Source: Kiritimatiellia bacterium (GTDB taxonomy: Bacteria > Verrucomicrobiota > Kiritimatiellia > RFP12 > UBA1067). Taken from it: 64,000 bases of DNA. Below, in pieces: positions 21,652-62,666 of the stretch. Where the stretch lies: the NCBI GenBank assembly GCA_017520845.1, contig JAFXEU010000052.1:23621-87620 (forward strand). Direction: 5' to 3'. The notes beneath the pieces were generated by a model that saw nothing but the letters and a program-made list of their open reading frames with translations, was not told the origin of the DNA and did no database searches. Numbering within the stretch: the first letter of the stretch is position 1; every line of letters begins with the position of its first letter. A program made the position numbers and the translations under genes.

Positions 21652-21688
21652 TACACGTGATTATACCACCTTCAACCACTATTGCAGC

Positions 21689-21706
21689 AACCTGTAAATA
21701 CAGGTT
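21689..21706. promoter_or_regulatory. 18-bp perfect palindrome AACCTGTAAATACAGGTT, 38-55 bp upstream of the GH20 start; copy 1 of a conserved ~30-bp element
   Basis: Seen directly in sequence. A near-identical 30-bp block TGAAAAACCTGTATTTACAGGTTGYTGCAA (minus-strand reading) recurs at 23251-23268. Confidence 0.4.
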
Positions 21707-21708
21707 TT

Positions 21709-23136
21709 TCAGAACCAGACCGCAAACGCGGCACATCCGTCATCTGCCTTTTTAAGAACGACCTTGCCGTTTCTCAAAGGCGCCGCCACGGCTTCGTAAT
21801 CGCGCGCATGATCATGGACATAGACCCAGGTCTCGGCATCCTTGTCGACACCTTTGAAATCCAGCACTATCTCCTTAGCGCCGCTGTGGTAATCTACGAC
21901 GATGACGCCTTTTCGCGTTCCGTCCTCGCTTCTGGCGGCAAGAGTCGTGATGCCGTCGGCACTCCCGGATTTGCAGATGACGGGAAGCGCTTTTATGAAT
22001 TCCCCGAACATCTTAAGGCCATAATAGACCTTGTATTTTGAATACCCGTCCTTGTATCCCCACGACCCGGTGTGGTTGCACCCGTAATAGTACGCCTGAT
22101 CGAGCTTCGAGGTCTGGAACATCGAAAGAAGCGTGAGATTGAAGCAGGAGGAGACGATTCCGTTGTGCGAACCAGGGCCGGTCCAGACCTTTTTGCGCAC
22201 TTCGGGATCGGGATTGCGAAGCGCGGCAAAGCCGCCCTTGCCCATGTAATGCCATTCGTTGATGATAAGCTCGCAGTCCTTGAAGCCATACTCGTCGCAA
22301 AGCTTGCGGCCTTTCTCAATCGCATTCATGACAACAGGCGGATGCCCCGTATAATGGTGCCACGAAATAAAGTCCGGAGCGACCCCTTCTTTTTTGCACT
22401 CTGCCAGAATGGCCCTGAAATAGCTCTCGTTCATCCAGCACAATGCAGGCCCGCCAACCTTTACTTCAGGAAACTCGCTCTTGATGCGCTTAAGGCACGT
22501 GACGAAAAACTTGACGAACCTGTCGCGGCGCTCCAGATCTCGGGCCTTTCTGTCGGCCGCAATCTCTTCGGGCGCATCTCCTCTGCCTGCGTCGCCGTCA
22601 GGAAGACACCACATGTTGTTGACGCCATCAGGCTCGTTCCAGATTTCCCAATACCTGATGTTCCAATTGTGCCCGTTCGCCCAGCCGCGATTGTAGTGGC
22701 GGACGGTGCCGGCGAATATCTCGGCCACCTTGTCGAAATCGTCAGGAATGAGCGTATTGAAATGGACATTCGGCCCCGAATGCTCAATGGATGCTCCAAG
22801 CCGGAAAAAGATATCCAGCGACGCCTCTTTGCGGCATCTGTCCAGAAGATAATCGGTCGGCGCAAAAACATAGTTCTTGGGATCTTTCGCATCAAGATGC
22901 ATAAGCGGAAATATCTGATGATAGTCGCATACATGCTGATTCGAGTTTACGAGCGCCCAGTCGTGGGTCCTGGCATACTTGAAGCCCATCGACTTTATTT
23001 CGTCGATGACAGCCTGGGAACACCCTTCTATCTTCGCTCCGAATCCGGAACTGTGCAACTCCGGACGCATTCTTCCGGTGTCTACCGTAAAATCAACCGG
23101 CAAAACTGTAGCCAAAACACACGCTGCGATCGTCAT
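21709..23136 (-). CDS. clan GH-A glycoside hydrolase (GH39/GH5-like)
   Basis: The IRYWEIWNEPD motif is the clan GH-A acid/base signature. The likely true start is MTIAACVLATVLPV at 23136 (AGGAGAA RBS just upstream). The track start at 23283 reads through the upstream palindrome. Confidence 0.6.
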   Translation of the reverse strand: MTIAACVLATVLPVDFTVDTGRMRPELHSSGFGAKIEGCSQAVIDEIKSMGFKYARTHDWALVNSNQHVCDYHQIFPLMHLDAKDPKNYVFAPTDYLLDRCRKEASLDIFFRLGASIEHSGPNVHFNTLIPDDFDKVAEIFAGTVRHYNRGWANGHNWNIRYWEIWNEPDGVNNMWCLPDGDAGRGDAPEEIAADRKARDLERRDRFVKFFVTCLKRIKSEFPEVKVGGPALCWMNESYFRAILAECKKEGVAPDFISWHHYTGHPPVVMNAIEKGRKLCDEYGFKDCELIINEWHYMGKGGFAALRNPDPEVRKKVWTGPGSHNGIVSSCFNLTLLSMFQTSKLDQAYYYGCNHTGSWGYKDGYSKYKVYYGLKMFGEFIKALPVICKSGSADGITTLAARSEDGTRKGVIVVDYHSGAKEIVLDFKGVDKDAETWVYVHDHARDYEAVAAPLRNGKVVLKKADDGCAAFAVWF

Positions 23137-23250
23137 ACCAACATTCTCCTGTTTTTGTGTTTGTAAATATCTCCGCCTTATTGCCCTTCTGCATTCCCTG
23201 CGAACGTAAGCACGTTTTTCATATCGTACCACAATCAGCTCTTTTGCAAC

Positions 23251-23268
23251 AACCTGTAAATACAGGTT
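23251..23268. promoter_or_regulatory. second copy of the 18-bp palindrome AACCTGTAAATACAGGTT, 115 bp upstream of the GH39-like start
   Basis: Identical palindrome plus conserved flanks (TTGCAACAACCTGTAAATACAGGTTTTTCAAAA). Confidence 0.4.
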
Positions 23269-23286
23269 TTTCAAAACTGTCATCTC

Positions 23287-29208: not shown

Positions 29209-29268
29209 GTTACATTTCCGTTACATTTTCGTTACATTTTTGTAACGTTGATGTAACACAAATGTAAC
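29209..29268. promoter_or_regulatory. phased operator-like array: 3x GTTACATTT (starts 29209, 29220, 29231) followed by 3x TGTAAC (29241, 29252, 29263), all at 11-bp spacing, forming a 60-bp higher-order palindrome 66-125 bp upstream of comM
   Basis: Seen directly. The inner pair forms GTTACA-TTTT-TGTAAC. Confidence 0.45.
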
Positions 29269-37505: not shown

Positions 37506-40346
37506 TTAAAGAAATTTCGCCGTAAACGATCTCGGCGACGATTTTACTTTTTCAAGCGGTCCTTCCACGACGACCTCTCCTCCGCCCGATCCGCCGCCGG
37601 GTCCCATGTCGACAATCCAGTCTGCCGATCGGATAACATCGATATTGTGCTCGATGACAATTATCGTATTTCCCTGGTCGCGCAGCTTGAGGAGAAGGTT
37701 CATCAGTTTGGCAACGTCATCAAAGTGAAGGCCCGTCGTAGGCTCGTCGAGAAGATAGAGCGTCCTGCCTGTCGAGCGCTTCGAAAGTTCTGTCGCGAGC
37801 TTTATGCGCTGCGCCTCACCCCCCGAAAGCGTCGTCGCCGACTGCCCGAGAGCGATGTACCCTAAGCCCACATCAACAAGCGTTTTAAGTTTCCTCGCAA
37901 GCGACGGAACCTTCGCGAAAAATTCGTACGCCTCCGCGACCGTCATCTCCAACACTTCGGCGATTGACTTTCCGCCATAGGTGACTTCAAGCGTCTCCGC
38001 ATTGAAGCGCTTACCTCCGCACTGTTCGCACGTCACGTACACATCCGGCAGAAAACTCATCTCAAGCTTTCGTAATCCGTCGCCGCCGCAGACTTCACAG
38101 CGCCCGCCTTTAACGTTGAACGAGAAGCGTCCCGCCGTGTATCCGCGCGCGCGCGCAGCCTCGGTCTTCGCGAAGAGTTCGCGTATCTCCGAGAAAAATC
38201 CGACATACGTCGCGGGATTGGAGCGCGGCGTACGGCCGATCGGGGACTGATCAATCTCAATCACCTTGTCAAAATTTTCGTCGCCCGTAAGCTTTTTATA
38301 TTTCCCAGGTCTCGCTTTTGAATTGTAGAATTTTTTCATCAGCGCCCGCTTGAGGGTTTCCTCAACGAGTGTTGACTTGCCCGAGCCGGAAACTCCAGAC
38401 ACCACCGTAAATGCACCAATGGGAAAATGCGCCGTCACGTTCTTCAGATTGTGCTCCGAGCAGTCCGAGATAGAGAGGAAGGAGTTAGTGGTTAGGGGAT
38501 AGGGGATAGGGGTCAGGGAAGCATTTCTTTTAACTCCTTTACCGACTCCTGACCTCTGACTCCTGACTCCTGACTCCTGAGAGGAGACTTTCTTCTCTCC
38601 CGTCAGATACTGCGCCGTGAGAGAGCCGCATTTCAAAAGCCCGTCAAAATCGCCTTGATACATGACGCGCCCGCCCTCGCGCCCTGCGCCGGGGCCGAGA
38701 TCGACTATCCAATCGGCGGCACGCATCATCTCCTCGTCGTGCTCAACGATGACCACCGTATTGCCGCGGTCGCGAAGCCCCTTCAACGTCGCGATAAGCC
38801 GCTCGTTGTCGCGTGGATGAAGCCCGATTGTCGGCTCGTCGAGAACATAAAGAACTCCCGTCAATCCGGAGCCGATCTGGGTCGCCAGCCGTATGCGCTG
38901 CATTTCTCCGCCCGAAAGCGTCGACGACGCGCGATCGAGAGTAAGGTAATCAAGCCCGACATCGATAAGAAACTTAAGACGCCGGCGTATCTCCTTCATA
39001 ACTTCACCGAGTCCCGCGAAACGCGTATCGCCCTTCTCGTCGATCGACTCGAAAAACTTAAGGGCGTCGGTGATGCTCATCGCCATCACCTCGACGATCG
39101 TTCTGCCCGCGACGCGCGCGGCCCGCGATTCCGGCCTGAGCCTCGCGCCGTTACATTCGGGGCAGACCTTGTAACTCTGGTACGATTCGTACTTCGAGCG
39201 CGTCTCGTCGTCTTCCGCCTCTTCAAGACGCTTTTGAAGAACGGCCAAAACACCTTCGAAGGGTCTATCGACGCTCCGCCACGGGAGGATAAGATCGTCC
39301 TTGAAGCCGTGCATCAGGTTTTTGCGGAATCCCGCCGGCAACTTTTCATAAGGCGTTGAAAGATCGACCTTGTACTGCCTGGAGATCTGCTCCAAAAGCG
39401 CATTGTAGTACATTATCGCGTTATGGCCCGCGCGGCGCCACGGATGGATGCACTCTCTTAACGGAAGCGTCTTGTCGGGAACAACGAGATCCTCGTCGAA
39501 AAAATACAGCTGGCCCAATCCCGAACATACAGGGCATGCGCCAAACGGCGAGTTGAACGAAAAGCTGCGGGGCTTGAGCTCGTCGAATGAAATGCCGCAA
39601 TCGACACAGGCGTTCAGTTCGGAATAAACGACGCTCTTGCCGGTTTCGACATATTCCACGCTCAATATCCCGCCGCCCGATTTAAGCGCCAGTTCCACGG
39701 AATCCGTAAGGCGCGTTCTGTCGCAGGGCAGAACGACGCGGTCGACGACAATATCGATGTTGTGGGATTTTTTCTTATCGAGCTCAGGAACCTCTTCGAT
39801 CATGTAAACGGATCCGTTGACCCGCACGCGCGCGAAGCCTTTGCGCTTCAACTCCTCGAATATATTTTCGTGACGGCCCTTTTTCCCCTTGACGGCAGGG
39901 GCGTAGATTACGGCCTTACCTGTCGTTTTCAAAACGGAATCCACAATCTCCTCGGCGCTTTGACGCTGAACGGGCCTGCCGCATTCGGGGCAGTGGGCGA
40001 TCGCGGCTGAACCGTATAGGATACGAAGATAGTCGTGTATCTCGGTAACGGTCGCCACGATAGAGCGCGGATTACCGCTCGTCGTTCTCTGTTCAATCGA
40101 AATCGCGGGACTTAATCCTTCGATCTTCTCGACGTCCGGTTTCGCGAGCCGGTCGAGAAACTGCCGCGCATAAGCCGAAAGCGACTCGACGTATCTGCGC
40201 TGGCCCTCCGCATAAAGCGTATCAAACGCGAGCGACGACTTACCGCTCCCGGAAAGTCCCGTCACGACGGTTAGTGAATTGCGCGGAATCGTTACGTCGA
40301 TCCCCTTAAGGTTGTGCATCCGCGCATTTGTTATCTCAATATCCAT
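37506..40346 (-). CDS. uvrA: excinuclease ABC subunit A, carrying an in-frame ~90-bp repeat-element insertion in the inter-half linker
   Basis: Two ABC ATPase halves with zinc-finger insertions. The start is [15 protein letters not shown] (cf. E. coli MDKIEVRGARTHNLKN). The linker GEKKV-[[39 protein letters not shown]][11 protein letters not shown] is encoded by the heptamer element at 38491-38582. Confidence 0.9.
38491..38582. repeat. heptamer-repeat element inside uvrA: (GGGGWTA)x5 G-quadruplex motif GGGGATAGGGGATAGGGGTCAGGG + 25-nt spacer + (CTGACYC)x5
   Basis: Seen directly. It is in frame with uvrA. A second copy with the same architecture and orientation lies in coaE (51199-51280). Confidence 0.7.
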
Positions 40347-40353
40347 ATTCGCC

Positions 40354-41130
40354 TCAACGCGTCTCTTCAAGCGGTTCATTGTCGCGCGATCTCAGAAGAA
40401 GCGAGGGATTCTCCCTGATTTCGTCAGCGAACTCCCTCAGCGACGCGGAGGCCGCCGACAGATTTTCAAGAATCACGCTGATCTGAGGAGTTGAGGTTTC
40501 GACAAGGACGTCCAGATCGGAGGTAAGCTTCGCCGTCGATTCGACAATCTCGGTGACATTGCTGCCGACGCTCGGGAGATTCATTCTGTTCAGGTGATTT
40601 ACCGTCCGCGTCAGCGAGTCCGCGAAATTCTCAAACATCGACGGCGCGGGCGGAATCATGGTATGCCTCGGATTCCATGAAATCGGAGCCGGGTCCTGCG
40701 GCGTACGCGGATAATCGAGTTCCAACCGCGACAGTCCCGTTATTCCGTTTGAACGTACGGTCGCGCGAAGCCCCATTTTGACCTTCTGCTCGAGAGCGCG
40801 AGCGGCCGACGCATCCTGCCCCAATCCCATCAAATCCGTATCTACGGAAAAAAGAATGTGTATTTTCTCGCGGTCCGCCTCGTTGGCGGTAGGGTAATCC
40901 CGTCCGACGAAGGACACCGCCCTGACGGAACCGACCTTGACTCCGCGGAACGTTATGGGGCTTCCCTCCGAAAGTCCCGAAACGGGATAGTTGTAATATG
41001 TCTCAAGCAGAATTTCCCTGGAACCGTTTACCCAACCGCCGAAATATGCGACTGTCGCGACGATGGCCGCAACGCCCAATATGACGATGAAGCCGATTTT
41101 GGCGTAACTAGGTGAATTGTCTCTTGCCAT
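40354..41130 (-). CDS. MCE-domain protein (MlaD/PqiB-like)
   Basis: N-terminal TM helix plus the MCE domain (ILLETYYNYPVSGLSEGSPITFRGVKVGSV). Confidence 0.7.
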   Translation of the reverse strand: MARDNSPSYAKIGFIVILGVAAIVATVAYFGGWVNGSREILLETYYNYPVSGLSEGSPITFRGVKVGSVRAVSFVGRDYPTANEADREKIHILFSVDTDLMGLGQDASAARALEQKVKMGLRATVRSNGITGLSRLELDYPRTPQDPAPISWNPRHTMIPPAPSMFENFADSLTRTVNHLNRMNLPSVGSNVTEIVESTAKLTSDLDVLVETSTPQISVILENLSAASASLREFADEIRENPSLLLRSRDNEPLEETR

Positions 41131-50922: not shown

Positions 50923-51510
50923 TTAGGCTTTGGACCTTGAAACGAGATAGTCGACCAGCTTGCGGGCTTCTGCCTTTAAGTCTTCATCGGTGGAATCGTT
51001 CAAAATCACATAATCTGATTTCGCCGCCTTTATCGCCGGATCCATCTGGGCGGCGAGTCGGGCTTCCGCTTCTTCGCGCGTATAGCCGCGCAAAGACGTC
51101 ATCCTCTCAATCTGCTTCTCGCGAGAGGAGAGGATGCAGATTATTATATCATAATCTTTCTCCCATTGCACCTCGAATAATAGCGGGATGACGGCGATTG
51201 GGGGAACGGGGAACGGGGAATGGGGACAGTCCCCTTTAACCTCCTGACTCCTAAATCCTGACTCCTGACTCCTGACCCCTTCTATCGCGGAGAGGATTTT
51301 CCGGCGGACGAGCGGGTGTATCCGCGCTTCAAGCTCCTTGCGGGCCTCGGGGTTTTTAAAAACGACTTTTCTCAGTCTCTCGCGCTCTTCTTGCGGTATG
51401 AGTTCATGAACTATGTCGTCAGCGTCGACTGTTACGACCCCTAAATCGTTCAGATAATGCGAAAGGAGGGATTTGCCAGAAGCAATCCCTCCCGTAATAC
51501 ATACTTTCAT
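50923..51510 (-). CDS. coaE: dephospho-CoA kinase carrying an in-frame heptamer-element insertion
   Basis: N-terminal P-loop MKVCITGGIASGKS. The insertion SAIEG-[VRSQESGFRSQEVKGDCPHSPFPVPPIA]-VIPLLFE is encoded by the element at 51199-51280. Confidence 0.75.
   Translation of the reverse strand: MKVCITGGIASGKSLLSHYLNDLGVVTVDADDIVHELIPQEERERLRKVVFKNPEARKELEARIHPLVRRKILSAIEGVRSQESGFRSQEVKGDCPHSPFPVPPIAVIPLLFEVQWEKDYDIIICILSSREKQIERMTSLRGYTREEAEARLAAQMDPAIKAAKSDYVILNDSTDEDLKAEARKLVDYLVSRSKA
51199..51280. repeat. second copy of the heptamer/G4 element: GGGGGAACGGGGAACGGGGAATGGGGACAGTCCCC + spacer + CTGACTCCTAAATCCTGACTCCTGACTCCTGACCCC, in frame inside coaE
   Basis: Seen directly. It has the same orientation relative to the host gene as the uvrA copy. 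Confidence 0.7.
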
Positions 51511-51521
51511 TGTATTATCAG

Positions 51522-54500
51522 TTATTCTTTCTCAGGCGCAGGCTTAATGCTTGCGGCCTCATTGCCCCCGTTATTGGCGGAAATTTTAACTTCACGACCG
51601 TGAGCATCAACAAGACGCGTGGTCAGGAAGATAAGAAGATTGCGCTTGGAGGAATATTCCGAATGGCTACGGAAGAGACGACCGATAAAAGGAATGTCTC
51701 CAAGGAAGGGAACCTTGTCGTCCATCGCCTTACGCTGCTCGGTGATGAGACCGCCCATGACGATCGTAGCGCCAGGATATACAAGAACCTTCGAATCGAT
51801 TTCACGGATATGGAAGAAGGGCTGCTCCATCGGGGCATCGTAATACGTCATATTAGCGGAGCCCTGATTGCCGAGAGAATCAAGCGCGGCACCGGCCGAG
51901 TCGAGAGCCTTGATGGCGAATGCCTCTTTGACCTCGTCGCTCAGATTGGCTCCGAGCTGCGTGAAGATACTGATGACGCCTGTAAAGATTTCGCCGACGC
52001 CCTGGAAACTCTCGAGCGAACTGGAATTGCCCGTGAACGGAATACGCATACCGTAGTTCTTCCAGGTGGGCTCGTCGATGACCTTGGTGTTGAGCTGGAG
52101 ATCGATCAGGTTGCCGTTGTCGGTAAGCCTGGGCGTTACATCGAGAATGACGCCGACTTCCTGCTCCTTGAAGTTGGTAGGCTCAACGATAGCGAGAATC
52201 GCGCTCTGGCTGCCGCCGCCGTAATCCGATCCGCCGCTTCTCGAGCTCTGAAGCTGGACGTCGTACTCATCCGGGTAACGGTACATCGTAACAACCTTGA
52301 TAACGGCCTGCTCTTCCGAGCGAGTCAGAACTTTCGGAGCGGAGAGGAGGTCCGTGTCGCTACGCTGCGAAAGCATGTGAAGAATCATAGAAAGATCAGC
52401 CGATCCGAGGAAGGCGTTAACACGCATAAACTGATCGTTCGTCGAATAACCCTCGCCGGAAATATGGTTGCCGAGCGTTGAAAGGTAACGGTTGTTCATG
52501 CCGTAGCCGGAATCTCCGCCCGTGGCGCCAAAGCCAACGCTACCCTTCGCGCCAGTACCGCGAATCCACGGAGCACCCCTGGATGCGGCATACGATGTAA
52601 GGCTGTTGTTTACAGTCGTAGACGGAGTTACAATCTGATCCGTGGGGGTCTGATTGCCGATTGTGGGAATGCTCGGTGTTCCGCTAGTGGAAGGACCGGT
52701 AGCGGGGGTGTTACCGGCAACAGACTGATTGGCCGAGCCAAGATCCCACTGACCGTTCTTTATGCCGAGAAGTTTAGAGGCATGGCGACCGAGACCGAGC
52801 GAATAGTCGCTGTTGAGAATCCACTCGAATCCGAGGGAGTTAAGATCGTCCTGGCAGACTTCAACGAATCGGGCCTCGATTTCAATGAGCGTAGGCTTGA
52901 TGTTCAGTTCGTTGAGAGCGTTTTCAAGTTCAGCAAGATTCTCGAGCGTGTTCTTAACCTGAAGTTTGCCGAGAGTCTTAATATACATAATGGAAGAACC
53001 TTCGGGCCACTCGACACCCATAAGGCGGAAGAACTCCTTCCAGTCCTGCTCCTTGTTCTCGCCGTCGTCGTTGCTGGCTTTAGGTCTGGTGCTGAGGTTG
53101 AAACCGGTGTTTCCGCTGGCGCGAAGATCCTGAACGTCGGTCTGAGCCGTGTCCATACGATCCATGAACGAAGAAAGAACGGGGAAGCTGCGAGTATGCA
53201 TCTCTTCAACGGAAGCGTCCTTGTGCATAATCGTGACCATCGGTCCCTTTACGGTAAACTTGTAGTTTACGGCCTCGCAAACGAGCTTAAGCGCATCATA
53301 GAAGGAAATTCCGCTTGCGGTGATGATCGGCAAGACCGGTCCGCGCTCGCTGGAAGGCTTGGCTTCGGCGGTTTCGCTTACACCGAAACCGCTGCCGTTG
53401 TCGGCGCCGGCCTCGGCGTCCGCGGGAGCCTGCGCAATCTCCTGAGGCTTGAAGAAGAAGTTGAAACCACGCTGCTCGAGCGGAATATCAGGACGGTCGA
53501 AATCCTTGGAGAGCTGGCTGAACGTTTCAATCGCATCGCTGAGCGTAGCCGGAGGCTTGAACGAAATCGCGGGAAGGCGCATATCCTTCATACGCTTGAT
53601 GATTTCCTGCTCGGGGGAAGCCGTCTCATCCTTCTCGTCGGTCGGCTTTTTATTCGTATCGGCGACGACTTCGACGTCGCGAACGTCGATCGCATAGTTG
53701 GGCCTCCACGCTTTATCTACTTCGGCCATCATACCCTTGCGCGTAACCTCGCGCTCGCTGGCCATAATCGTTCTGCGCTTCTGATGGATTTTATCAAGAA
53801 GCCTCAACGCCTCCTGATTATAGGGGTCGTCATGGAGTACAAGCTCAACCTCGTCGCGCGCCTTATCAAGTTCTCTTACTGAAAGGTAGTGCTGAGCGCG
53901 TTTAAGGTGCTTTTTGTACTCGGCACGCTTTGCCTTAAAATCCTCGTCGTTACGGCGATGGGTGATTTCAGATACATCGGCCTTGTTGGCGTCGGGATCG
54001 CCTTCGGCAATCCAAGCCTCATGCTGACGGCGCGCCTTGGGGTGGCGGCAGTCGATAGCCTTCTGGATCAGCTTGAGGGCGCGCTCGCGGCGACCGGTCG
54101 CATTTTCCTGAAGAGCTGCTCTGTAAAGACCCTCGGCGATACCTTCCTGACACTTCTTCCTGAGACCGGAAAGCGAAGGAGAGGAATTCAGAAGCTTCAT
54201 CGCCAACGCATAATGACGGGCGGCTTCCTGGAACTCCTCGCCGGCCATGCACTTCTCGGCCTCGGCGATTTCGCGTTCAGCCTGAAGCTTGAACGCCTTG
54301 AAGCGCAACTCCTGAGTCTTACGCAGAGCATCGCGCAATTCCGCGTCCGTAGCCTTCTTGTTGTCGCCGTAATATTTCTCGGCGGGCTTTAGCTGACCGT
54401 CGTCAGCTGCGACCTTGGCGGGCTCTTCGTCCTTAGTCTCGGCGTCGGCCGCAGCCGCTTCGGGAGCAGGCGCCGCATCCTTAGCTTCAACGACAGGCTC

Positions 54501-54773
54501 AGCCGTCGCCGTTTGGGCGGGAGCCGGAGCAGGATCATCCGACAAAATGTCTGCAGAAGCATTCTCGGCAGGCGCCGGCGCCGGTGTCGCAACGGCCGGT
54601 TCCGCCGGCTTCGCAGGCTCTTCGGCTTTCTTCTCGACCGCGGTGTCACTACCGGCGAGATCGTTCAGCAAATCGTCAAGATCGTCTTGGGCAGACGCTT
54701 TGTATCCCGCGGCTACAAAAGCCGCAGTCGCTGCGAGTACCGTTAAATTCTTGAAAGTCGTCATTTTAAGCAT
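51522..54773 (-). CDS. secretin (GspD/PilQ family) with long N-terminal Ala/Pro-rich and TPR-like region, 1083 aa
   Basis: Signal peptide present. A/P/E-rich low-complexity region and TPR-like helices. The C-terminal secretin domain ends with VPFLGDIPFIGRLFRSHSEYSSKRNLLIFLTTRLV. Confidence 0.75.
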   Translation of the reverse strand: MLKMTTFKNLTVLAATAAFVAAGYKASAQDDLDDLLNDLAGSDTAVEKKAEEPAKPAEPAVATPAPAPAENASADILSDDPAPAPAQTATAEPVVEAKDAAPAPEAAAADAETKDEEPAKVAADDGQLKPAEKYYGDNKKATDAELRDALRKTQELRFKAFKLQAEREIAEAEKCMAGEEFQEAARHYALAMKLLNSSPSLSGLRKKCQEGIAEGLYRAALQENATGRRERALKLIQKAIDCRHPKARRQHEAWIAEGDPDANKADVSEITHRRNDEDFKAKRAEYKKHLKRAQHYLSVRELDKARDEVELVLHDDPYNQEALRLLDKIHQKRRTIMASEREVTRKGMMAEVDKAWRPNYAIDVRDVEVVADTNKKPTDEKDETASPEQEIIKRMKDMRLPAISFKPPATLSDAIETFSQLSKDFDRPDIPLEQRGFNFFFKPQEIAQAPADAEAGADNGSGFGVSETAEAKPSSERGPVLPIITASGISFYDALKLVCEAVNYKFTVKGPMVTIMHKDASVEEMHTRSFPVLSSFMDRMDTAQTDVQDLRASGNTGFNLSTRPKASNDDGENKEQDWKEFFRLMGVEWPEGSSIMYIKTLGKLQVKNTLENLAELENALNELNIKPTLIEIEARFVEVCQDDLNSLGFEWILNSDYSLGLGRHASKLLGIKNGQWDLGSANQSVAGNTPATGPSTSGTPSIPTIGNQTPTDQIVTPSTTVNNSLTSYAASRGAPWIRGTGAKGSVGFGATGGDSGYGMNNRYLSTLGNHISGEGYSTNDQFMRVNAFLGSADLSMILHMLSQRSDTDLLSAPKVLTRSEEQAVIKVVTMYRYPDEYDVQLQSSRSGGSDYGGGSQSAILAIVEPTNFKEQEVGVILDVTPRLTDNGNLIDLQLNTKVIDEPTWKNYGMRIPFTGNSSSLESFQGVGEIFTGVISIFTQLGANLSDEVKEAFAIKALDSAGAALDSLGNQGSANMTYYDAPMEQPFFHIREIDSKVLVYPGATIVMGGLITEQRKAMDDKVPFLGDIPFIGRLFRSHSEYSSKRNLLIFLTTRLVDAHGREVKISANNGGNEAASIKPAPEKE

Positions 54774-54823
54774 AACACTCCTTGAGATTATCGTATATAT
54801 TATAGACTTTTTTGGTTAACTAT

Positions 54824-55942
54824 TCAAGGGCTTTCGATAACCCGCACTTTATTCGATTTTACGTTCCTGATCTTCACCGCTTCACGATCGCGTCCGTTCC
54901 CCTTGCTCAATATCTTTTCAACAACAAATTCCTCGTCTCTGATTTTAAACTTTTGTCCTTCGACCACCTTTATATCCGTAACGCCGGCACGGCTACAGGA
55001 CAATGTCGCCTGAACGTCCGTAGGAGTCTTTTTAACCTCCTTGACAAAAGTGATTATCTTTCCGTCACTTAGGCGTTTAAGCGAAATTTCCGAAACATCC
55101 TTTTTCATGGGCGTACCCCATGACGTCTTAATCTCTTGCGTCTTGGGCTTATACTCAACGACGACAAAACCGGCCCTATAGTGAGCGTTGGGACTCTGCT
55201 TTGTGTTTTGCAAAGTATTGGCGATTTCTTCGCCCTTAAGCGCCCATAAAGTACCTCTGTCGATTTCATTGCGGCGCTCCGGCAGCCTGAACTGATATCT
55301 GTAATCGCCCTGATAAGGCATCGCACCGACAAATTCCAAAGTTGAAAATTCCTGCTTCAGCGCTCCGGCCAATTCAACATAATCGATGTAATCGGGATGT
55401 GACAACGCGTCCGCAGGATTGGTTTTCGCCGTAAACTCCTCCATATTGGTGAAGCCGTCCCCGTCCTTGTCGGCGCTCGCGTCGTCGTTCGCGACGTCGA
55501 GTCCGTATGTCCTCTCGTACTCGTCCAAAAGCCCGTCTCCGTCCGTATCGAGAACGACCTTGATGTCCTTAGTCTGCTTTACTTTACAGTAGGGACAGTT
55601 TTCAAGTTTTGACGGTATCAGGCGTCCGCACCCCGCGATCTGAGAGTCCGGCGAAATACACGCCTTGCGGCCTTCGGGCGCGAGAAAACTCCCCGCGTCG
55701 TCCGAAATCCCTTTCATCGACACCGGGTCGGAAACGGATTCAAGAAGCTCGACCACGCCGTCCTTACCATCACCGCCGGATTTCCCGGCGCGCGCGGAGG
55801 AGGAAGAACCCTCGGAAACCGTCTCGGACGACAGAACGAATTTGAACACCGCTACAAGCGCCAAAACGGCAATGCCGCCGAGAGCCGCGAGTTTATCCCA
55901 ATTCGACTTGAAAAAATCACCGTCACTTTTTCGAACGCTCAT
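54824..55942 (-). CDS. membrane-anchored periplasmic protein with CxxC...CxxC knot and thrombospondin-type-3-like Ca-binding repeats (DTDGDGLLD, DKDGDGFTN); pilus-assembly accessory candidate
   Basis: N-terminal TM helix. Positioned between the Amuc_1100-like gene and the secretin. Confidence 0.45.
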   Translation of the reverse strand: MSVRKSDGDFFKSNWDKLAALGGIAVLALVAVFKFVLSSETVSEGSSSSARAGKSGGDGKDGVVELLESVSDPVSMKGISDDAGSFLAPEGRKACISPDSQIAGCGRLIPSKLENCPYCKVKQTKDIKVVLDTDGDGLLDEYERTYGLDVANDDASADKDGDGFTNMEEFTAKTNPADALSHPDYIDYVELAGALKQEFSTLEFVGAMPYQGDYRYQFRLPERRNEIDRGTLWALKGEEIANTLQNTKQSPNAHYRAGFVVVEYKPKTQEIKTSWGTPMKKDVSEISLKRLSDGKIITFVKEVKKTPTDVQATLSCSRAGVTDIKVVEGQKFKIRDEEFVVEKILSKGNGRDREAVKIRNVKSNKVRVIESP

Positions 55943-56868
55943 TTCGACTCCTTACCCTTCTCGATCTTCTGTGTGAATATCACCGAGGTTATATTCATTT
56001 TAACCTTAAGAGGCGCCTCAGCGGCGGGATCCACCACTATAGCCTTAATCGCCTGCTCTCCCGCGGCGCTTTTTTTACCCATATCCTTCTTAACATCGAT
56101 CTTCTGAAGAAAGCTCTCGCCGTCGATAAACAGTGATTCAACGACGAAAAACCACTTGCCTTCGCCGCTTGCGAGCATATTCATAAACTTTACGAGAGCC
56201 GCCGGCTTGGCCTCAAACTCAACGGCGTATGTCTGTTCGTCGTATTTCGGGGCCTCCTCGGTCTTTTCAGCCGGTTTCCTCCTGGACCTGTTTCTTGCCG
56301 GCTTCTTAATCTCCGGCTCGCTCTGAGCCTTGACGACATCCGTAAACATTCCGAGCTGACAGACTCCGGCGTCGCGCATCAGTTCCATAATATGATAGAA
56401 ATCGCTCCATTGGCGCGCTACCAGAAGTTTGTTCTTCGGAGCGACGGCGCCGTCGTCTTTAACGTAATTGTAGAAAACCTTGAAATTCTGGTCGCCGTTT
56501 TTTGCGAGGAAATCGCCTGGAATGATTTTTACGGTCGAATCCGAAGGCCAGCTCTTAATCTCCCTGAATTCCGTGTTGATCGCCTGTTGAAGCTCGTTTT
56601 CGGATTTCTCGGCATGTCTTACCAGATTGGTGTTTACCATCGAATCATATCGCTCCGACATCAGTCCGTCAATCTCTTTGATATCTTCTGCGATCGTTTT
56701 ATCGCGGCTGACGCCGTTAAGGGCGCTGCACTTATTCTGAAGATCGGCAACTTCCTGTTTACGCTGGTCGATCGTTGACCCGTTCATGAAAACGAGAGCG
56801 AAAAAGACGAGAGCCACAGCCGCTCCGACACCGCCTGTCACCGCCATCGTAAGTTGATTTTTATTCAT
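55939..56868 (-). CDS. single-pass membrane coiled-coil protein, PilO-like; candidate homolog of Akkermansia Amuc_1100 pili-like protein
   Basis: N-terminal TM (LTMAVTGGVGAAVALVFFALVF) followed by a coiled-coil. The C-terminal block VEFEAKPAALVKFMNMLASGEGKWFFVVESLFI aligns by eye with the Amuc_1100 region LEIAFQGDRESVLKAMNAITGMQDYLFTVNSIRI. That comparison is from memory and is not verified. Confidence 0.4.
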   Translation of the reverse strand: MNKNQLTMAVTGGVGAAVALVFFALVFMNGSTIDQRKQEVADLQNKCSALNGVSRDKTIAEDIKEIDGLMSERYDSMVNTNLVRHAEKSENELQQAINTEFREIKSWPSDSTVKIIPGDFLAKNGDQNFKVFYNYVKDDGAVAPKNKLLVARQWSDFYHIMELMRDAGVCQLGMFTDVVKAQSEPEIKKPARNRSRRKPAEKTEEAPKYDEQTYAVEFEAKPAALVKFMNMLASGEGKWFFVVESLFIDGESFLQKIDVKKDMGKKSAAGEQAIKAIVVDPAAEAPLKVKMNITSVIFTQKIEKGKESK

Positions 56869-58583
56869 TTCGACTCCGGCTCCTTCCCGTTGAGCTTCCA
56901 TTCAAAAACATACGCCTTCAAGCAGGTGTCGCTGCTCACATTCGGCTCGGCGATGGTATTTGTTTTTTTGCGTATGACGTCAATACCCTTCTTTTTGAAT
57001 GCGGCGATTATACCGTCGACATCCGCATCGGAAGACCCCCATTTATACAAGGTAAAATGCACTCCCGGCACTTCAACCGGCTCGTTGGTCCTGCTTCTCG
57101 CCCTCCTGTCCCTTCTGCTTCTGGGCTTTCTGTCCTTCGGTTCTTCTTTCGGTTCAGCGTCCTTTATTTTAACTTCTTCCCACTTGCCGATCCACATTCC
57201 CTTCGACTCGACCACGCCGCGCACGTCGTTCACCTTCTTGAGATAATCGTCGTGCCGGGTAATCTGTTTGAGAAACTCCTTGGCCTCGACAACCTTCGCC
57301 TCGTACTTTTTATTCTGGGCGTCGTTGTAGGCCTTGTTGCCTTCCAAAACTCTGAGTCTGGGCTCGTATTCGCTCTTCTTGGCGTCAAGCCGGCTCAACT
57401 CGCCGGACTGGACGAAATACCAAAGCGCGCCTGCCGCGGCAAGAGCGACGGCACCTATCGTCACGAACGGAATCCGCGCCGCCTCCCTGCGGGCCTCCGT
57501 GATCGACGGCGGCAGAAGATTGATGGAGATCGGCGAGGATCCGCCGGCGTGAAGCGCCAGACCCGTGGTCGCCGCGAGGTACACGCTGTCGCGCTCGATA
57601 TCGGAAGTGTCGCACGACGATCCTACCCCTGCAACATCGAACGGGTTAAGAAACGCGACCTCGATCTGAAGGGAATCCTGGAAGAAATCCGCGATCTGGG
57701 GAAGAAGCGCACAGCCGCCTGTCAGATAAAGCCTGGTCGGCATCGCCCCGCCCTGCTGACTGCGGTAGAAGTTGACTGAACGCGTGATTTCCGCATGCAG
57801 GCGCGTCATCACCGAACGGCATATCTTCGAGACGTGATCGAGCGTTTCATCCTCGTCTTCGGTCACGCCGCCCATAGACACGTATGCGTTCCGGCACTTG
57901 TAATTCTCGGCGTCTTCCTGGCTGCAGCCCAAAGTCTGGGCGATTTCCTTGGTGATCGTGTTGCCCGCGACGGGAATGGCGCGGTTGTAGATTTTCTCGC
58001 CTTCGACGATAGAAAGCGAAGTCGTCTTCGCGCCGATATCGAGAAGAATCGCGCAGCCGCCGTCGTAGGCGGGACTTGCGCGGAGAAGATTGATGATCGA
58101 GATGGGCGCGACATCGATGATTTCAGGATCGAAGCCGGCGGACTTTACGGCCTCGACGATCTTCTCGATCTGATCGACCTTCGTCGCGACGACGATAACG
58201 GACTTGTCGCCGTTGGGCATATCTCCCAATATCTGGCTGTCGCAGACCATTTCGTCGATCGGGAACGGGATGTTCTGCTCGATCTCGTACCTGATGAGAG
58301 TCTCGAATCTTTCTTTCCCGCCCGCCATCGGTATGGCGGCGTTGCGCAGAAACGCCATCTGTCCTGAAATGCTGAGCGCGACCTTACCGGGTCTGATGCC
58401 GTTGGCGCGCATGATTTCATGAAGCGCTGGCGCGAGAATCGTGGAGGCGTTGCCCGAATCGAGCGCGGCGGCGAGCTGCGACTTGCCGTACTTCAGCAGA
58501 GTCGGGGCGCGGCCGCCGATATCATACTCCGCGAGAACGACGGTCGACGCGCCTATATTAAGAGTCAAAAGCTTCTTTCCCAT
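56865..58583 (-). CDS. PilM-like actin-fold ATPase fused to a PilN-like TM/coiled-coil C-terminal region (572 aa)
   Basis: N-terminal MGKKLLTLNIGASTVVLAEY and LLDIGAKTTSLSIV (PilM/FtsA-like), then a TM helix IPFVTIGAVALAAAGALWYF and a coiled coil. Confidence 0.7.
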   Translation of the reverse strand: MGKKLLTLNIGASTVVLAEYDIGGRAPTLLKYGKSQLAAALDSGNASTILAPALHEIMRANGIRPGKVALSISGQMAFLRNAAIPMAGGKERFETLIRYEIEQNIPFPIDEMVCDSQILGDMPNGDKSVIVVATKVDQIEKIVEAVKSAGFDPEIIDVAPISIINLLRASPAYDGGCAILLDIGAKTTSLSIVEGEKIYNRAIPVAGNTITKEIAQTLGCSQEDAENYKCRNAYVSMGGVTEDEDETLDHVSKICRSVMTRLHAEITRSVNFYRSQQGGAMPTRLYLTGGCALLPQIADFFQDSLQIEVAFLNPFDVAGVGSSCDTSDIERDSVYLAATTGLALHAGGSSPISINLLPPSITEARREAARIPFVTIGAVALAAAGALWYFVQSGELSRLDAKKSEYEPRLRVLEGNKAYNDAQNKKYEAKVVEAKEFLKQITRHDDYLKKVNDVRGVVESKGMWIGKWEEVKIKDAEPKEEPKDRKPRSRRDRRARSRTNEPVEVPGVHFTLYKWGSSDADVDGIIAAFKKKGIDVIRKKTNTIAEPNVSSDTCLKAYVFEWKLNGKEPESK

Positions 58584-58607
58584 AACCTGAAATGTTTAGT
58601 ATTGTGA

Positions 58608-59363
58608 TTATTGAGCGACGTCTTCGTAATCGTTAGGGTTGACAAGAGCCCAAATGGTCTTGGAACGGTCGACGAGACCCTGTCGGCGCTCGATCATCGG
58701 TTCGCCGTTCTTGTTCTTCGCGTCCATGACCTGGGCCTCGTTCCACCACATCGTATGGCTCTTTATTCCGGAAATCTCGCTCTCGCTGTCGCCCGCGAGA
58801 ACCTCTCCTTCCGGACTGGAGATGACAAGTCCGACCGCCTTGGGCTCGCCGTACCTTTCAAGATACGAAGGCGGAAGACAGACGCCCGCCGCATGGGAAC
58901 CGCGCGGAATATTGACATAGCTGACCGTCGTCGAGAAATATGAATACGGAGGGATCGAAGCGCGCTCTTTCCTGTCGCCCTCCGTGGCCGTCGAGGTTTC
59001 AAGGAGGACATGCCAGGTGAATACGAGCCTGTCGGTCCACTGATCGTACGTCTCGTACTTGGATTCGAGAACGATCCAGCGGCGGTCCTTCATATAGCAC
59101 TTGCCGATGATCGAACCTCCGGGAATCGCGGGGGCGGCGAGAGTCGAGGCACGGCCCGCCTTGGGAAGACGGTCCAGTCTGACGCGCGGAACCTTCGCCG
59201 ACGCCGCGGCGGGACCCGTCTGGCCGACCTGCATGCCGCCGGCGCGCGTGCCGGTACGGACGTTGCGGCTGTTCCTCCTCGGGCTCTGCGCCTCGGCGGT
59301 CGTCGCCGCGAAGACTGCGGCGATAACCGCAACGGAAAAGATGAGAAGCTTTTTCATGTTCAT
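58608..59363 (-). CDS. secreted hypothetical protein (251 aa), first gene of the pili-like cluster (position corresponds to Amuc_1102)
   Basis: Signal peptide MNMKKLLIFSVAVIAAVFAATTAEA. No recognised motifs. Confidence 0.4.
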   Translation of the reverse strand: MNMKKLLIFSVAVIAAVFAATTAEAQSPRRNSRNVRTGTRAGGMQVGQTGPAAASAKVPRVRLDRLPKAGRASTLAAPAIPGGSIIGKCYMKDRRWIVLESKYETYDQWTDRLVFTWHVLLETSTATEGDRKERASIPPYSYFSTTVSYVNIPRGSHAAGVCLPPSYLERYGEPKAVGLVISSPEGEVLAGDSESEISGIKSHTMWWNEAQVMDAKNKNGEPMIERRQGLVDRSKTIWALVNPNDYEDVAQ

Positions 59364-61469: not shown

Positions 61470-61497
61470 TTTATTCAGTTTAGAATTTTAAAGTTCA

Positions 61498-61538
61498 GAG
61501 TTACTAACGACTAACCACTAATCACTAACGACTAATCA
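61498..61538. repeat. heptamer tandem array ACTAACG-ACTAACC-ACTAATC-ACTAACG-ACTAATC-ACT directly abutting the ackA stop codon, in the ackA-pta intergenic spacer
   Basis: Seen directly. On the mRNA strand it reads (GRUUAGU)n, which puts UAG/UGA stop codons in all three frames. Confidence 0.6.
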
Positions 61539-62666
61539 CTCCCCAAGCACACGGACGGTGTCGCGGGCGATCATAAGCTCCTCGTTAGTCGGGATGATGA
61601 CGACGGGAATCTTAGACGCCTTCGTGGAGATAACCGCAACCTTGCCGCGCGTCTTGTTGGCCTTCTTGTCAAGCTTGATGCCGAGAGCGCCGAGACGGTT
61701 AATGATACGCTCGCGGACCTCGGAAGAATTCTCGCCGATACCGCCCGTCATGATGATCGCGTCGGCGCCGCCGATCACCGTATTGTACGCGCCGATGTAA
61801 AGCGCCATGCGGTAGGCGAGCATTTCAAGCGCGAGCTCGGCCATCTTGTCGCCCTTCTCGGCCTTGGAAACGATGTCGCGGCAGTCGCTCGAACCGGTAA
61901 GCGCGAGAAGGCCGGACTTCTTGTTGAGAATCGTATCCATCTCGGCGGGAGTTTTCTTCTCGGCCTCCATGATTGAGAGAACGGCGGCGGTATCGATATC
62001 TCCGCAGCGCGTACCCATGATGAGACCGGCGAGCGGCGTAAGACCCATCGTCGTATCGACGCACTGACCGTTCTTGACGGCGGCGAAAGACGAGCCGTTA
62101 CCCATGTGGCACGTGACGACGTTAAGTTTCGCGAGGGGCTTCTTCAAAAACTTCGCTGCCTCCTGGACGATGAACTTGTGGCTCGTACCGTGGAAACCGT
62201 ACTTGCGGATACCCATCTTCTTGTAGTACTTCGGATCAATCGCGTACATCGCCGCGCAGTCGGGCATCGTCTGATGGAACGCGGTGTCGAACACGGCGAC
62301 GTTGGGAACGCCCTTGAAGATTTTCTCGCACGCTTCGATGCCTCCGAGATTCGGCGGCATGTGAAGAGGCCCGAACTTGACGAGCTTCTTGCACTCGGCC
62401 ATAACCTTCTTGGTAACCTTTACGGAATCCTTGAAGACCTCGGCGCCGTGAAGGACGCGATGTCCGATAGCGTCGATATCCTTGGGGTTGCCGAGCTCCG
62501 CGACCACCTGCTTGAGAGCCTCGGTGTGATCCTTCGGTCCCCCGCATCCGATGCGCTCGACGAGACCCTTGGCGAGACGCTCGCCCTTCTTCATGCTGAA
62601 GAGCTGATATTTAAGAGAGCTTGAACCGGAGTTGATTACGAGAACTTTATCGATAGCTTTTTTCAT
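61536..62666 (-). CDS. ackA: acetate kinase
   Basis: N-terminal VLVINSGSSSLKYQLF acetate/propionate kinase signature. 376 aa. Lies in an operon with pta. Confidence 0.85.
   Translation of the reverse strand: MKKAIDKVLVINSGSSSLKYQLFSMKKGERLAKGLVERIGCGGPKDHTEALKQVVAELGNPKDIDAIGHRVLHGAEVFKDSVKVTKKVMAECKKLVKFGPLHMPPNLGGIEACEKIFKGVPNVAVFDTAFHQTMPDCAAMYAIDPKYYKKMGIRKYGFHGTSHKFIVQEAAKFLKKPLAKLNVVTCHMGNGSSFAAVKNGQCVDTTMGLTPLAGLIMGTRCGDIDTAAVLSIMEAEKKTPAEMDTILNKKSGLLALTGSSDCRDIVSKAEKGDKMAELALEMLAYRMALYIGAYNTVIGGADAIIMTGGIGENSSEVRERIINRLGALGIKLDKKANKTRGKVAVISTKASKIPVVIIPTNEELMIARDTVRVLGE

Follow-up and report, generated by a model that had tools for sequence, protein, structure and literature searches.

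A heptanucleotide repeat block of unstable content, read in frame within the dephospho-CoA kinase gene of a Kiritimatiellia bacterium

A stretch of 64,000 nucleotides from a Kiritimatiellia bacterium (contig JAFXEU010000052.1 of assembly GCA_017520845.1; hereafter the window) was found to carry an insert of tandem 7-nt units in frame within coaE, the gene for dephospho-CoA kinase, and a sister copy of the same layout within uvrA. With a probability of about 0.6, we read the coaE insert as a block of heptanucleotide simple-sequence repeats resembling the short tandemly repeated repetitive (STRR) heptamers of cyanobacteria, that is, as a tolerated passenger which has been filtered by viability and which would need no function in its host. 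Judged from sequence, both the coaE and the uvrA copies would be translated, hypervariable heptamer blocks at permissive sites, and a new example of a kind of bacterial repeat that is already known.

Structure of the coaE insert and its sister copy

The host gene coaE (50923-51510, minus strand) is predicted to encode a protein of 195 amino acids, a P-loop kinase which matches Pfam PF01121 (CoaE, 6e-33) as well as solved CoaE structures in the PDB. The insert as a whole occupies positions 51200 to 51279 of the minus strand (approximately 80 nt), is read in frame and adds about 24 residues when compared with orthologues of 171 amino acids. The original prediction, which was made from the letters of the window, had described an insertion of 28 amino acids; an in-frame insert is indeed present, but relative to the closest orthologues that have none (171 amino acids, ...AMSGENPP followed by IAIIPLLFE) the protein gains 24 amino acids, the final PPIA being native.

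On the sense strand the insert has the layout (GGRGTCA)5, GTTAAA-GGGGACTGTCCCC, (CCCCRTT)3-4, or in full GAAG GGGTCAG GAGTCAG GAGTCAG GATTTAG GAGTCAG GAG GTTAAA GGGGACTGTCCCC ATTCCCC GTTCCCC GTTCCCC C AATCGCC. The coaE open reading frame (ORF) translates across the repeat block as VRSQESGFRSQEVKGDCPHSPFPVPPIA, and peptides from this region would include SQESGFRSQEVK and DCPHSPFPVPP. The purine-rich array (51241-51279, minus strand; GGGGTCA GGAGTCA GGAGTCA GGATTTA GGAGTCA GGAG) was called by Tandem Repeats Finder (TRF) with a period of 7 and 5.7 copies and encodes GVRSQESGFRSQE; read on the plus strand, it is a run of 5.7 CTCCTGA-type heptamers at 51241-51279/80. The centre (51222-51240, minus strand) is composed of GTTAAA and the palindrome GGGGAC-T-GTCCCC, encodes VKGDCP, and on the plus strand corresponds to the palindrome GGGGAC-A-GTCCCC (51222-51234, 13 nt) and TTTAAC (51235-51240). 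The C-rich array (51200-51225, minus strand; CCCCATT CCCCGTT CCCCGTT CCCCC), which was also called by TRF, encodes HSPFPVP; its plus strand (G GGGGAAC GGGGAAC GGGGAAT GGGG) is the template for transcription and is a canonical G-quadruplex (G4) motif by sequence search. The array of four G-runs, the palindrome and the CTGACTC-type array were all as described in the original prediction, and the 7-nt periodicity was seen to run through the whole block, spacer included.

The sister copy (38480-38582, minus strand) lies 12.7 kb away in uvrA (37506-40379, minus strand), which encodes 957 amino acids. In the sense direction it reads (GGAGTCA)4-5, GGTAAAGGAGTTAAAAGAAATGCTT, CCCTGAC CCCTATC CCCTATC CCCTAAC CACTAAC. 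The CTGACTC arrays of the two genes are 89% identical over 35 nt, which agrees with their earlier assignment to one family and layout, and the centres differ; array units and GTTAAA are common to both copies and there is no conserved core. Both copies are in frame and sense-oriented, as had been stated, and the ORFs read through both.

A third heptamer locus lies between the stop of ackA and the start of pta (61470-61540, minus strand) and consists of (GTGATTA/GTCGTTA/GTGGTTA)x5 and then degenerate (AACTCTR) units up to the pta start; in relatives, this spacer holds (GTCAGNG)n and (AACTCTA)4-7. In this spacer, too, an array of GTCAG type precedes one that is richer in pyrimidines.

TRF reported a period of 7 at 51201-51226, 51241-51280, 38493-38512, 38544-38580 and 61503-61540, giving three heptamer loci within 64 kb, and 7 is the dominant tandem period of the window. 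Matches to CTGACTCCTGACTC with at most two mismatches numbered 7 against 0.28 expected, and none of 100 shuffles reached 7; GGG-N4 x3-GGG gave 3 matches in the window, at two loci, against 0.03 expected, and GGGGAACGGGGAAC taken alone was not significant. In a self-match scan of the window, lag 7 picked out the coaE and uvrA loci only, and no loci were returned at lags 4-6, 8-10 or 12.

A fixed site with changing content

A search for CoaE homologues returned 2552 proteins, those with names being from Kiritimatiellae. The best 120 of the 2552 ranged from 171 to 253 amino acids, with length variation confined between the anchors IHPLVRRKI... and IAVIPLLFE. When the arrays of 116 orthologues were classed by regular expression, both arrays were present in 86, the C-rich array only in 21 and neither in 9, and the purine-rich array was never found alone. 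The lengths of the variable segment in these orthologues peak at 25, 32, 38 and 45 amino acids, equivalent to steps of three heptamers (7 amino acids). In approximately 100 CoaE clusters, drawn from ENA, Logan, JGI and NCBI and assembled independently, an insert was present at the same codon position, and close relatives without any insert also exist (CoaE of 171 amino acids).

The comparison of coaE between close relatives, which had been suggested as a check, revealed a fixed site with hypervariable content: the 47 CoaE clusters which, outside the insert, share at least 95% identity with the window had 35 distinct inserts, and one protein cluster (P0007) which is 100% identical outside the insert nevertheless has another centre and a longer C-rich array. 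The DNA of 24 coaE loci was then compared, with identities computed outside the insert (loci fetched from relatives or other contigs are numbered L, and protein clusters P). The window was 98.3% identical to L186, 97.1% to L161 and 95.1% to L156, while L163 and L174 were 97.6% identical and L165 and L166 95.5% (coaE and rho). The insert of L174 is longer than that of L163 by 21 nt (three units), and the type of C-rich unit switches at 95% identity (CCCCGTT versus CCCTAAC). Centres vary at 97-98% identity (TTAAAGGGGACTGTCCCCA, CAGTTTTGACCTATAA or TCAGTTCTGACCAATAATTCCTCTTCTCCG); the centre GVKGDCP is kept in part of the clade, with unrelated sequence in its place in strains that are 97-98% identical. 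In L185 (8008-8673), whose coaE allele otherwise resembles that of L186, a 57-nt segment, ACCCCTGCTAGGGCATTGCCTTCGGCGACTCCTCCCTTCGGTCGTCGGGGGATAC, is nested in the C-rich array and lengthens the protein in frame by 19 residues.

Between the window and L186, 17/66 mismatches were found in the 200-nt bin that holds the insert and 0 in both adjoining bins, so the change is local and no diverged flanking allele was brought in. Recombination through the flanking gene, with a divergent allele being brought in, was rejected on these grounds.

The coaE and uvrA sites are occupied throughout a clade of approximately 80-98% nucleotide identity. At the uvrA site, L156 has eight units per array, L165 has both arrays, L166 has the C-rich array only and L159 has none. 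Across seven syntenic loci of 11-20 kb each, convincing heptamer arrays were seen nowhere beyond the coaE, uvrA and ackA-pta sites; a census of arrays in the fetched genome loci, which was independent of selection by pattern, comprised 15 arrays, too few to use. Taken from these alignments, the evidence points to old and stable sites with unstable content, and to remodelling in place as opposed to ongoing transposition; a history of two independent insertions, as first proposed, appears too simple.

Unit gain and loss, changes of array type and centre swaps far outpace change in the flanking gene, and this is the observed part of the proposed mechanism. The causes may be replication slippage and recombination with end points inside the arrays. 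Selection would admit stop-free heptamers in the stop-free orientation, a total length divisible by three and point changes which remove stops. The coaE locus constitutes a natural series, in which a single essential gene is represented by hundreds of alleles from metagenomes (75-100% identity) with the repeat at one fixed codon position, and from which unit gain and loss, switches of array type, centre swaps and the repair of in-frame stops can be read.

Reading frame, orientation and stop codons

As 7 and 3 are coprime, any frame of a heptamer array encodes the same cyclic heptapeptide. (GAGTCAG)n encodes ESGVRSQ and is stop-free, and its complement (CTGACTC)n has TGA in all frames. (CCCCGTT)n and (CCCCATT)n have no stops in either direction; (CCCCTAA)n has one TAA per three units, its complement has TAG, and in (TAGGGGA)n a TAG occurs in each of the three frames. 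With TGA or TAG in every antisense frame, an antisense copy of either window element would truncate the protein. The frame and the sense orientation of both copies would follow because only the stop-free orientation and lengths divisible by three survive.

The shared orientation of the coaE and uvrA copies therefore appears to be forced and to give no evidence for selection on the element. It had been taken as an argument for selection, but the all-frame stops in antisense, together with the location of 39 of the 44 ORFs of the window on the minus strand, suffice to account for it. Nor is it evidence for transcription-coupled insertion, which had also been suggested, since the antisense stops force sense copies. 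More generally, repeats with a period not divisible by three can turn into translated disordered protein segments, and the orientation and frame of such inserts are no evidence of function. The same stop-codon logic was set out by MacGregor for TAACTGA repeats (PMC4679880).

Selection for translation appears to be directly visible in the removal of in-frame stops. In the coaE and uvrA arrays of relatives, CC[CT]TAN reads TAT in 7 of 8 in-frame cases and TAA or TAG in 32 of 43 out-of-frame cases (Fisher, P = 2e-5). In L156, whose units are CCTAACC CCTAACC CCTCGCA CCTAACC CCTAACC TCTCCCT, the third unit of each of the two triplets is altered. All 11 coaE loci recovered by tblastn, a search which would also catch frameshifted genes, were intact, and all contigs examined were in frame; no off-state (frameshifted) allele was found among these 11 loci and contigs.

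Position of the inserts in the proteins

An AlphaFold2 model of CoaE (mean predicted local distance difference test (pLDDT) score of 83.9) places residues 84-104 in coil, with pLDDT below 50 at 84-98. The coil lies between a long helix (54-83) and a strand at 105-107 (IAVIPLLFE), and solved CoaE structures have few residues at the insert position, where the segment is missing. The insert is predicted from the model to be a disordered surface loop. The original prediction had pointed to the lid region; the model puts the insert between helix 54-83 and strand IAVIPLLFE, a position which we take to lie where the CoA-binding helical domain meets the core rather than in the lid. The uvrA copy is in the linker joining both ATPase domains, which has approximately 35 residues compared to approximately 11 in the T. 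maritima UvrA structure.

Other repeats were observed at the same two sites. UvrA linkers of other Kiritimatiellae (P0124, P0131, P0133, P0137 and P0172) carry other inserts with a period of 7 amino acids, represented in these UvrA fragments by TQHSTFNTQHS, VPSADGVPSAECLVPSAEL, DSQFSIRNSQF and QLSTPNSQLST, which implies that different heptamers colonised the same linker. The coaE genes of L178 (4001-4567) and L182 (2969-3559), which are 55-57% identical, have in-frame inverted arrays of 9-nt units, (GGGACNNAC)n..(GTNNGTCCC)n, in the same loop. The inserts are palindromic and form a strong hairpin (z = -6.2 for L178 and -2.9 for L182), and their centre encodes G(D/A)CP, like GGGGACTGTCCCC in the window. 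In L184 (GCA_965357125.1; 9507-10268, 15923-18991 and 4886), from a distant member of the Kiritimatiellae, a 16-nt hairpin, GACGCATCCCTGCGTC, occurs four times in 20 kb and always within genes: in the CoaE loop, in the UvrA linker, at a second uvrA site and in a fourth gene. The coaE insert of L184 also holds two copies of CATTGCGAGCCGCGAAGCGGCGTGGCAATC, a hairpin resembling repetitive extragenic palindromic (REP) elements, and (CCACTCT)n heptamers, and its CoaE has 253 amino acids. The CoaE loop and the UvrA linker are permissive sites which have been repeatedly occupied. Length variants of CoaE and UvrA in Kiritimatiellae should be annotated with caution, as they are driven by repeats.

The layout across phyla

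One genome per species was scanned for GAGTCAGGAGTCAG-N15-45-CCCCNNNCCCC, for which chance would give roughly 2 matches. The layout (GAGTCAG)n then (CCCCNNN)n was found at no fewer than 120 loci (at least 120) in Cyanobacteria, Planctomycetota, Acidobacteriota, Chloroflexota, Bacteroidota, Verrucomicrobiota and others, the cyanobacterial matches listed being from Nostoc, Anabaena, Microcystis, Okeania and Trichodesmium. Among the matches listed, nearly all had extended arrays on both sides and many were inverted, (GGRGTCA)n..(TGACYCC)n.

Of the 120 listed loci, 20 were within long ORFs on the sense strand and none lay solely in an antisense ORF. Ten of ten intragenic loci tested were in genuine genes, with the insert usually between domains; the hosts were PyrB (twice), a non-ribosomal peptide synthetase, a GH38 mannosidase, MutS2, a class A penicillin-binding protein, an MrfA-type helicase, a nitrite-reductase-like protein, an E2 acyltransferase and a sigma-54 activator. 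Outside genes, where the neighbours could be called, 21 copies ran in the direction of the flanking tandem genes and 17 against it, while 11 lay between convergent and 10 between divergent genes. This cross-phylum census depends on the pattern used for the search and on rough ORF calls. Orientation is fixed within genes (20/20 sense) and free outside them, which is the pattern predicted by a viability filter; the original prediction had offered such a filter as one possibility and had called for a census of arrays with their orientation.

In viral contigs, the purine-rich array preceded the C-rich one in 8 cases against 0, and the corresponding count for inverted arrays was 4:0. Arrays of (GAGTCAG)3 or longer were noted in 35 viral contigs (L001-L035, e.g. 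L008, L034 and L013), with up to 5 arrays in 13 kb; these often end a few bases before an ATG and resemble tandem Shine-Dalgarno-like AGGAG motifs. A composite was also noted at the same position, in the Asp/Orn-binding domain of aspartate carbamoyltransferase, in a Chroococcales metagenome-assembled genome (L046:2-994) and in a Nostoc sp. (L059:1405-2538).

Protein searches were uninformative. The 42-amino-acid uvrA insert, screened against 1.84 billion protein representatives, gave 3 matches (two short SQESGVR-repeat ORFs and one unrelated repeat protein), while an idealised composite query of 41 amino acids gave 21 short hypothetical proteins (cyanobacterial where named) and did not recover even the CoaE orthologues.

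Points against the passenger reading and alternative explanations

Several observations weigh against a tolerated block that is remodelled in place. The same two-array layout in two unrelated genes is unexplained by in-place slippage, and slippage gives no reason why the purine-rich array is never without the C-rich one (0/116 CoaE) or why the order of the two is never reversed in the viral contigs. Translation cannot account for this polarity either, since most copies are intergenic. L165 has a purine-rich array in both coaE (near 10240-10320) and uvrA (near 19960-20135) and L166 lacks it in both genes, so that gain or loss has run in parallel at two loci approximately 10 kb apart. Array type is discordant with phylogeny, the window and L166 sharing CCCCATT-CCCCGTT and L156 not. 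The 9-nt inverted arrays and REP-like hairpins which other Kiritimatiellae lineages hold at both sites hint at repeated colonisation. Finally, translation of the insert is inferred. The polarity, the parallel presence and absence, and the discordant array types keep open a mechanism of dispersal or conversion.

The best-placed alternative, which we nonetheless hold to be unlikely, is a small non-autonomous mobile element that would have inserted independently into coaE and uvrA, been kept where the frame was preserved, and have the arrays as its arms. Such an element would be expected to produce one polar two-array layout in two genes 12.7 kb apart and at many loci across phyla, with the strict polarity of the viral contigs. 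The many copies outside genes that form inverted arrays, the strong hairpin of the L178 coaE insert, the L184 hairpin with its intragenic copies in the CoaE loop and UvrA linker, the 57-nt element nested within the L185 array and the parallel purine-rich arrays of coaE and uvrA in L165/L166 would all suit it. The window copies themselves, however, lack terminal inverted repeats: GGAGTCA and CCCCGTT, as arms, do not complement each other, and both copies, folded as DNA on both strands, gave z values of -0.24 to +1.0, no better than shuffled sequence. A reading of them as hairpins or as a miniature inverted-repeat transposable element was dropped for this reason. No target-site duplication was found at either copy. 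The coaE copy has no flanking direct repeat; GAGAGGA flanks the uvrA copy and was judged coincidental as a target-site duplication, as it overlaps native FLS codons and is missing from L156. It also counts against a mobile element that the two copies have no core in common beyond array units and GTTAAA, that the arrays of relatives stay at the same three sites without new ones (11-20 kb, 7 loci), and that no transposase or reverse transcriptase domain was present among the window ORFs scanned. The absence of a transposase gene from these ORFs likewise gives no association of the type seen with REP-associated tyrosine transposases (RAYTs).

It is more doubtful still that the polar pair is one kind of element found across phyla which is made or spread by an unrecognised sequence-directed process; an enzyme dedicated to this task, a very small mobile unit or gene conversion primed by the arrays may be candidates. 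Were this so, a directed process would repeatedly seed hypervariable disordered linkers in essential proteins and switch lineage-wide, and such lineage-wide switching would explain the presence of the purine-rich array in both genes of L165 and its absence from both genes of L166.

A block kept for its function has little probability, whether it would act as a template-strand G4 or i-motif (the equivalent structure of a C-rich strand) or as tandem AGGAG in the mRNA, either of which would adjust how the operon is transcribed or translated, or as a contingency switch of coaE or uvrA by slippage. The only canonical G4 motifs in the window are those of the two copies (38495-38518 and 51200-51225), both on the template strand and with at least 4 G-tracts at 7-nt spacing, and G-rich heptamer repeats are reported to favour four G-tracts (PMC4692102). 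A regulatory role of heptamer repeats was proposed in Nostoc and Beggiatoaceae (bioRxiv 10.1101/2022.06.06.494920; PMC4679880), and the (GAGTCAG)n arrays of viral contigs are often directly upstream of start codons. The G4-type motif of the original prediction is real and unique to both copies within the window, but it is not conserved among orthologues: of the alleles with heptamers, no more than 6 of 10 in coaE keep the four-tract motif, and 2 of 4 uvrA alleles do, which speaks against a conserved G4 function. Content varies even within species, and close relatives manage with a CoaE of 171 amino acids and no insert. Slippage by one or two units would put the gene out of frame, but every tblastn locus and contig examined was in frame. 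Furthermore, coaE is normally essential, so that turning it off would be lethal and not adaptive.

Chance resemblance is dismissed by the shuffle controls and the lag scan, and an assembly artefact, which the original prediction had allowed for and in whose favour speaks only that repeats are hard to assemble in general, by the filling of the same site in approximately 100 independent assemblies from four sources.

Comparison with known repeats

Knowledge of bacterial heptamer repeats goes back to 1990, the year in which Mazel reportedly described the cyanobacterial STRR heptamers, and Mrazek is said to have surveyed long simple-sequence repeats of bacteria in 2007; both kinds of repeat are reviewed in PMC4692102. 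We know of no agreed origin or role for bacterial heptamer repeats, and no paper with the exact repeat strings of the coaE and uvrA copies was found in the searchable literature. The block described here resembles STRRs in its head-to-tail 7-nt units, its presence at more than one locus (three in the window) and a copy number that varies by strain, and (GAGTCAG)n followed by CCCCAGT/CCCCATT arrays was found by the scan in Nostoc, Anabaena, Microcystis, Okeania and others. It differs in its host, a gut-type member of the Kiritimatiellae, and in that the copies studied are inside essential housekeeping genes and are predicted to be translated. Small dispersed repeats nested in Nostoc heptamer arrays were reportedly noted by Elhai in 2008; short foreign segments within arrays would be a likeness of arrangement to the 57-nt segment of L185 and the swapped centres.

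Heptamers are over-represented among long bacterial simple-sequence repeats and are G-rich in Xanthomonas and Nostoc; in Nostoc one third of heptamer repeats are intragenic and paired inverted arrays were noted (PMC4692102). The G4-forming repeats GGGNATC of Xanthomonas and GGGGA(C/T)T of Nostoc (Rehm et al. 2015, PMC4692102) are like the window copies in their 7-nt-spaced G-tracts, four of which are present in both window copies, in their paired or inverted arrays and in having intragenic copies. In contrast, the heptamers here are GGGGAAC and GGGGATA, the four-tract motif is unconserved, the G-rich strand is the transcription template and G4 formation is predicted. The TAACTGA repeats of Beggiatoaceae, Cyanobacteria and Bacteroidetes (MacGregor 2015, PMC4679880) are likewise a heptamer shared across distant phyla, an all-frame stop in one orientation restricts their intragenic copies, and both kinds are mostly intergenic. 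They are built from another heptamer and lie mostly just before start codons or at the protein periphery, whereas the coaE and uvrA copies are two arrays of opposite composition within proteins. GGACCGG x4 of Geobacter metallireducens, at 49 inter- and intragenic sites (PMC2700814), is also a G-rich heptamer in four tandem units, but forms single arrays and not a polar pair, and belongs to another phylum and another sequence.

Rickettsia palindromic elements (RPEs; PMC10969869) are similar as selfish-looking short DNA which is found in frame in unrelated housekeeping genes and is compatible with the fold of the protein. RPEs are palindromes of approximately 150 bp with a conserved peptide and fall into discrete families (PMC10969869). 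The window copies, unlike RPEs, are non-palindromic and made of tandem units, have no conserved core and encode a peptide that varies within species. In-frame insertion at sites tolerated by the fold is an RPE-like trait found here, in the CoaE loop, the UvrA linker and ten other host genes from other phyla.

The surrounding window

The window is gene-dense, with negative GC skew on the plus strand across its entire length. It encodes glycoside hydrolases, recA, uvrA, rho, ackA-pta and a pilus/secretin cluster syntenic with the Amuc_1098-1102 region of Akkermansia. The order secretin-coaE-rho is kept among the loci of relatives. The cluster upstream of coaE (51522-59363) contains secretin, PilM and TSP3-repeat genes, whose order is conserved across the clade, and in relatives it matches Pfam Amuc_1100 and Amuc_1102, families of Akkermansia pilus-associated proteins. 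The secretin gene is hypervariable in places, with 80 mismatches to L161 within one 200-nt bin, for example.

An Rfam scan of the window returned one tRNA and no other match. Two glycoside-hydrolase genes have at their 5' ends (21679-21715 and 23241-23277) copies of a 37-nt sequence which are 92% identical and contain the hairpin AACCTGTAAATACAGGTT; a leader or regulatory motif common to both genes is possible. An 11-nt tandem repeat, GTTACATTTTC x2.9, was also observed at 29209-29240, in the spacer between comM-like and gyrB/parE-like genes.

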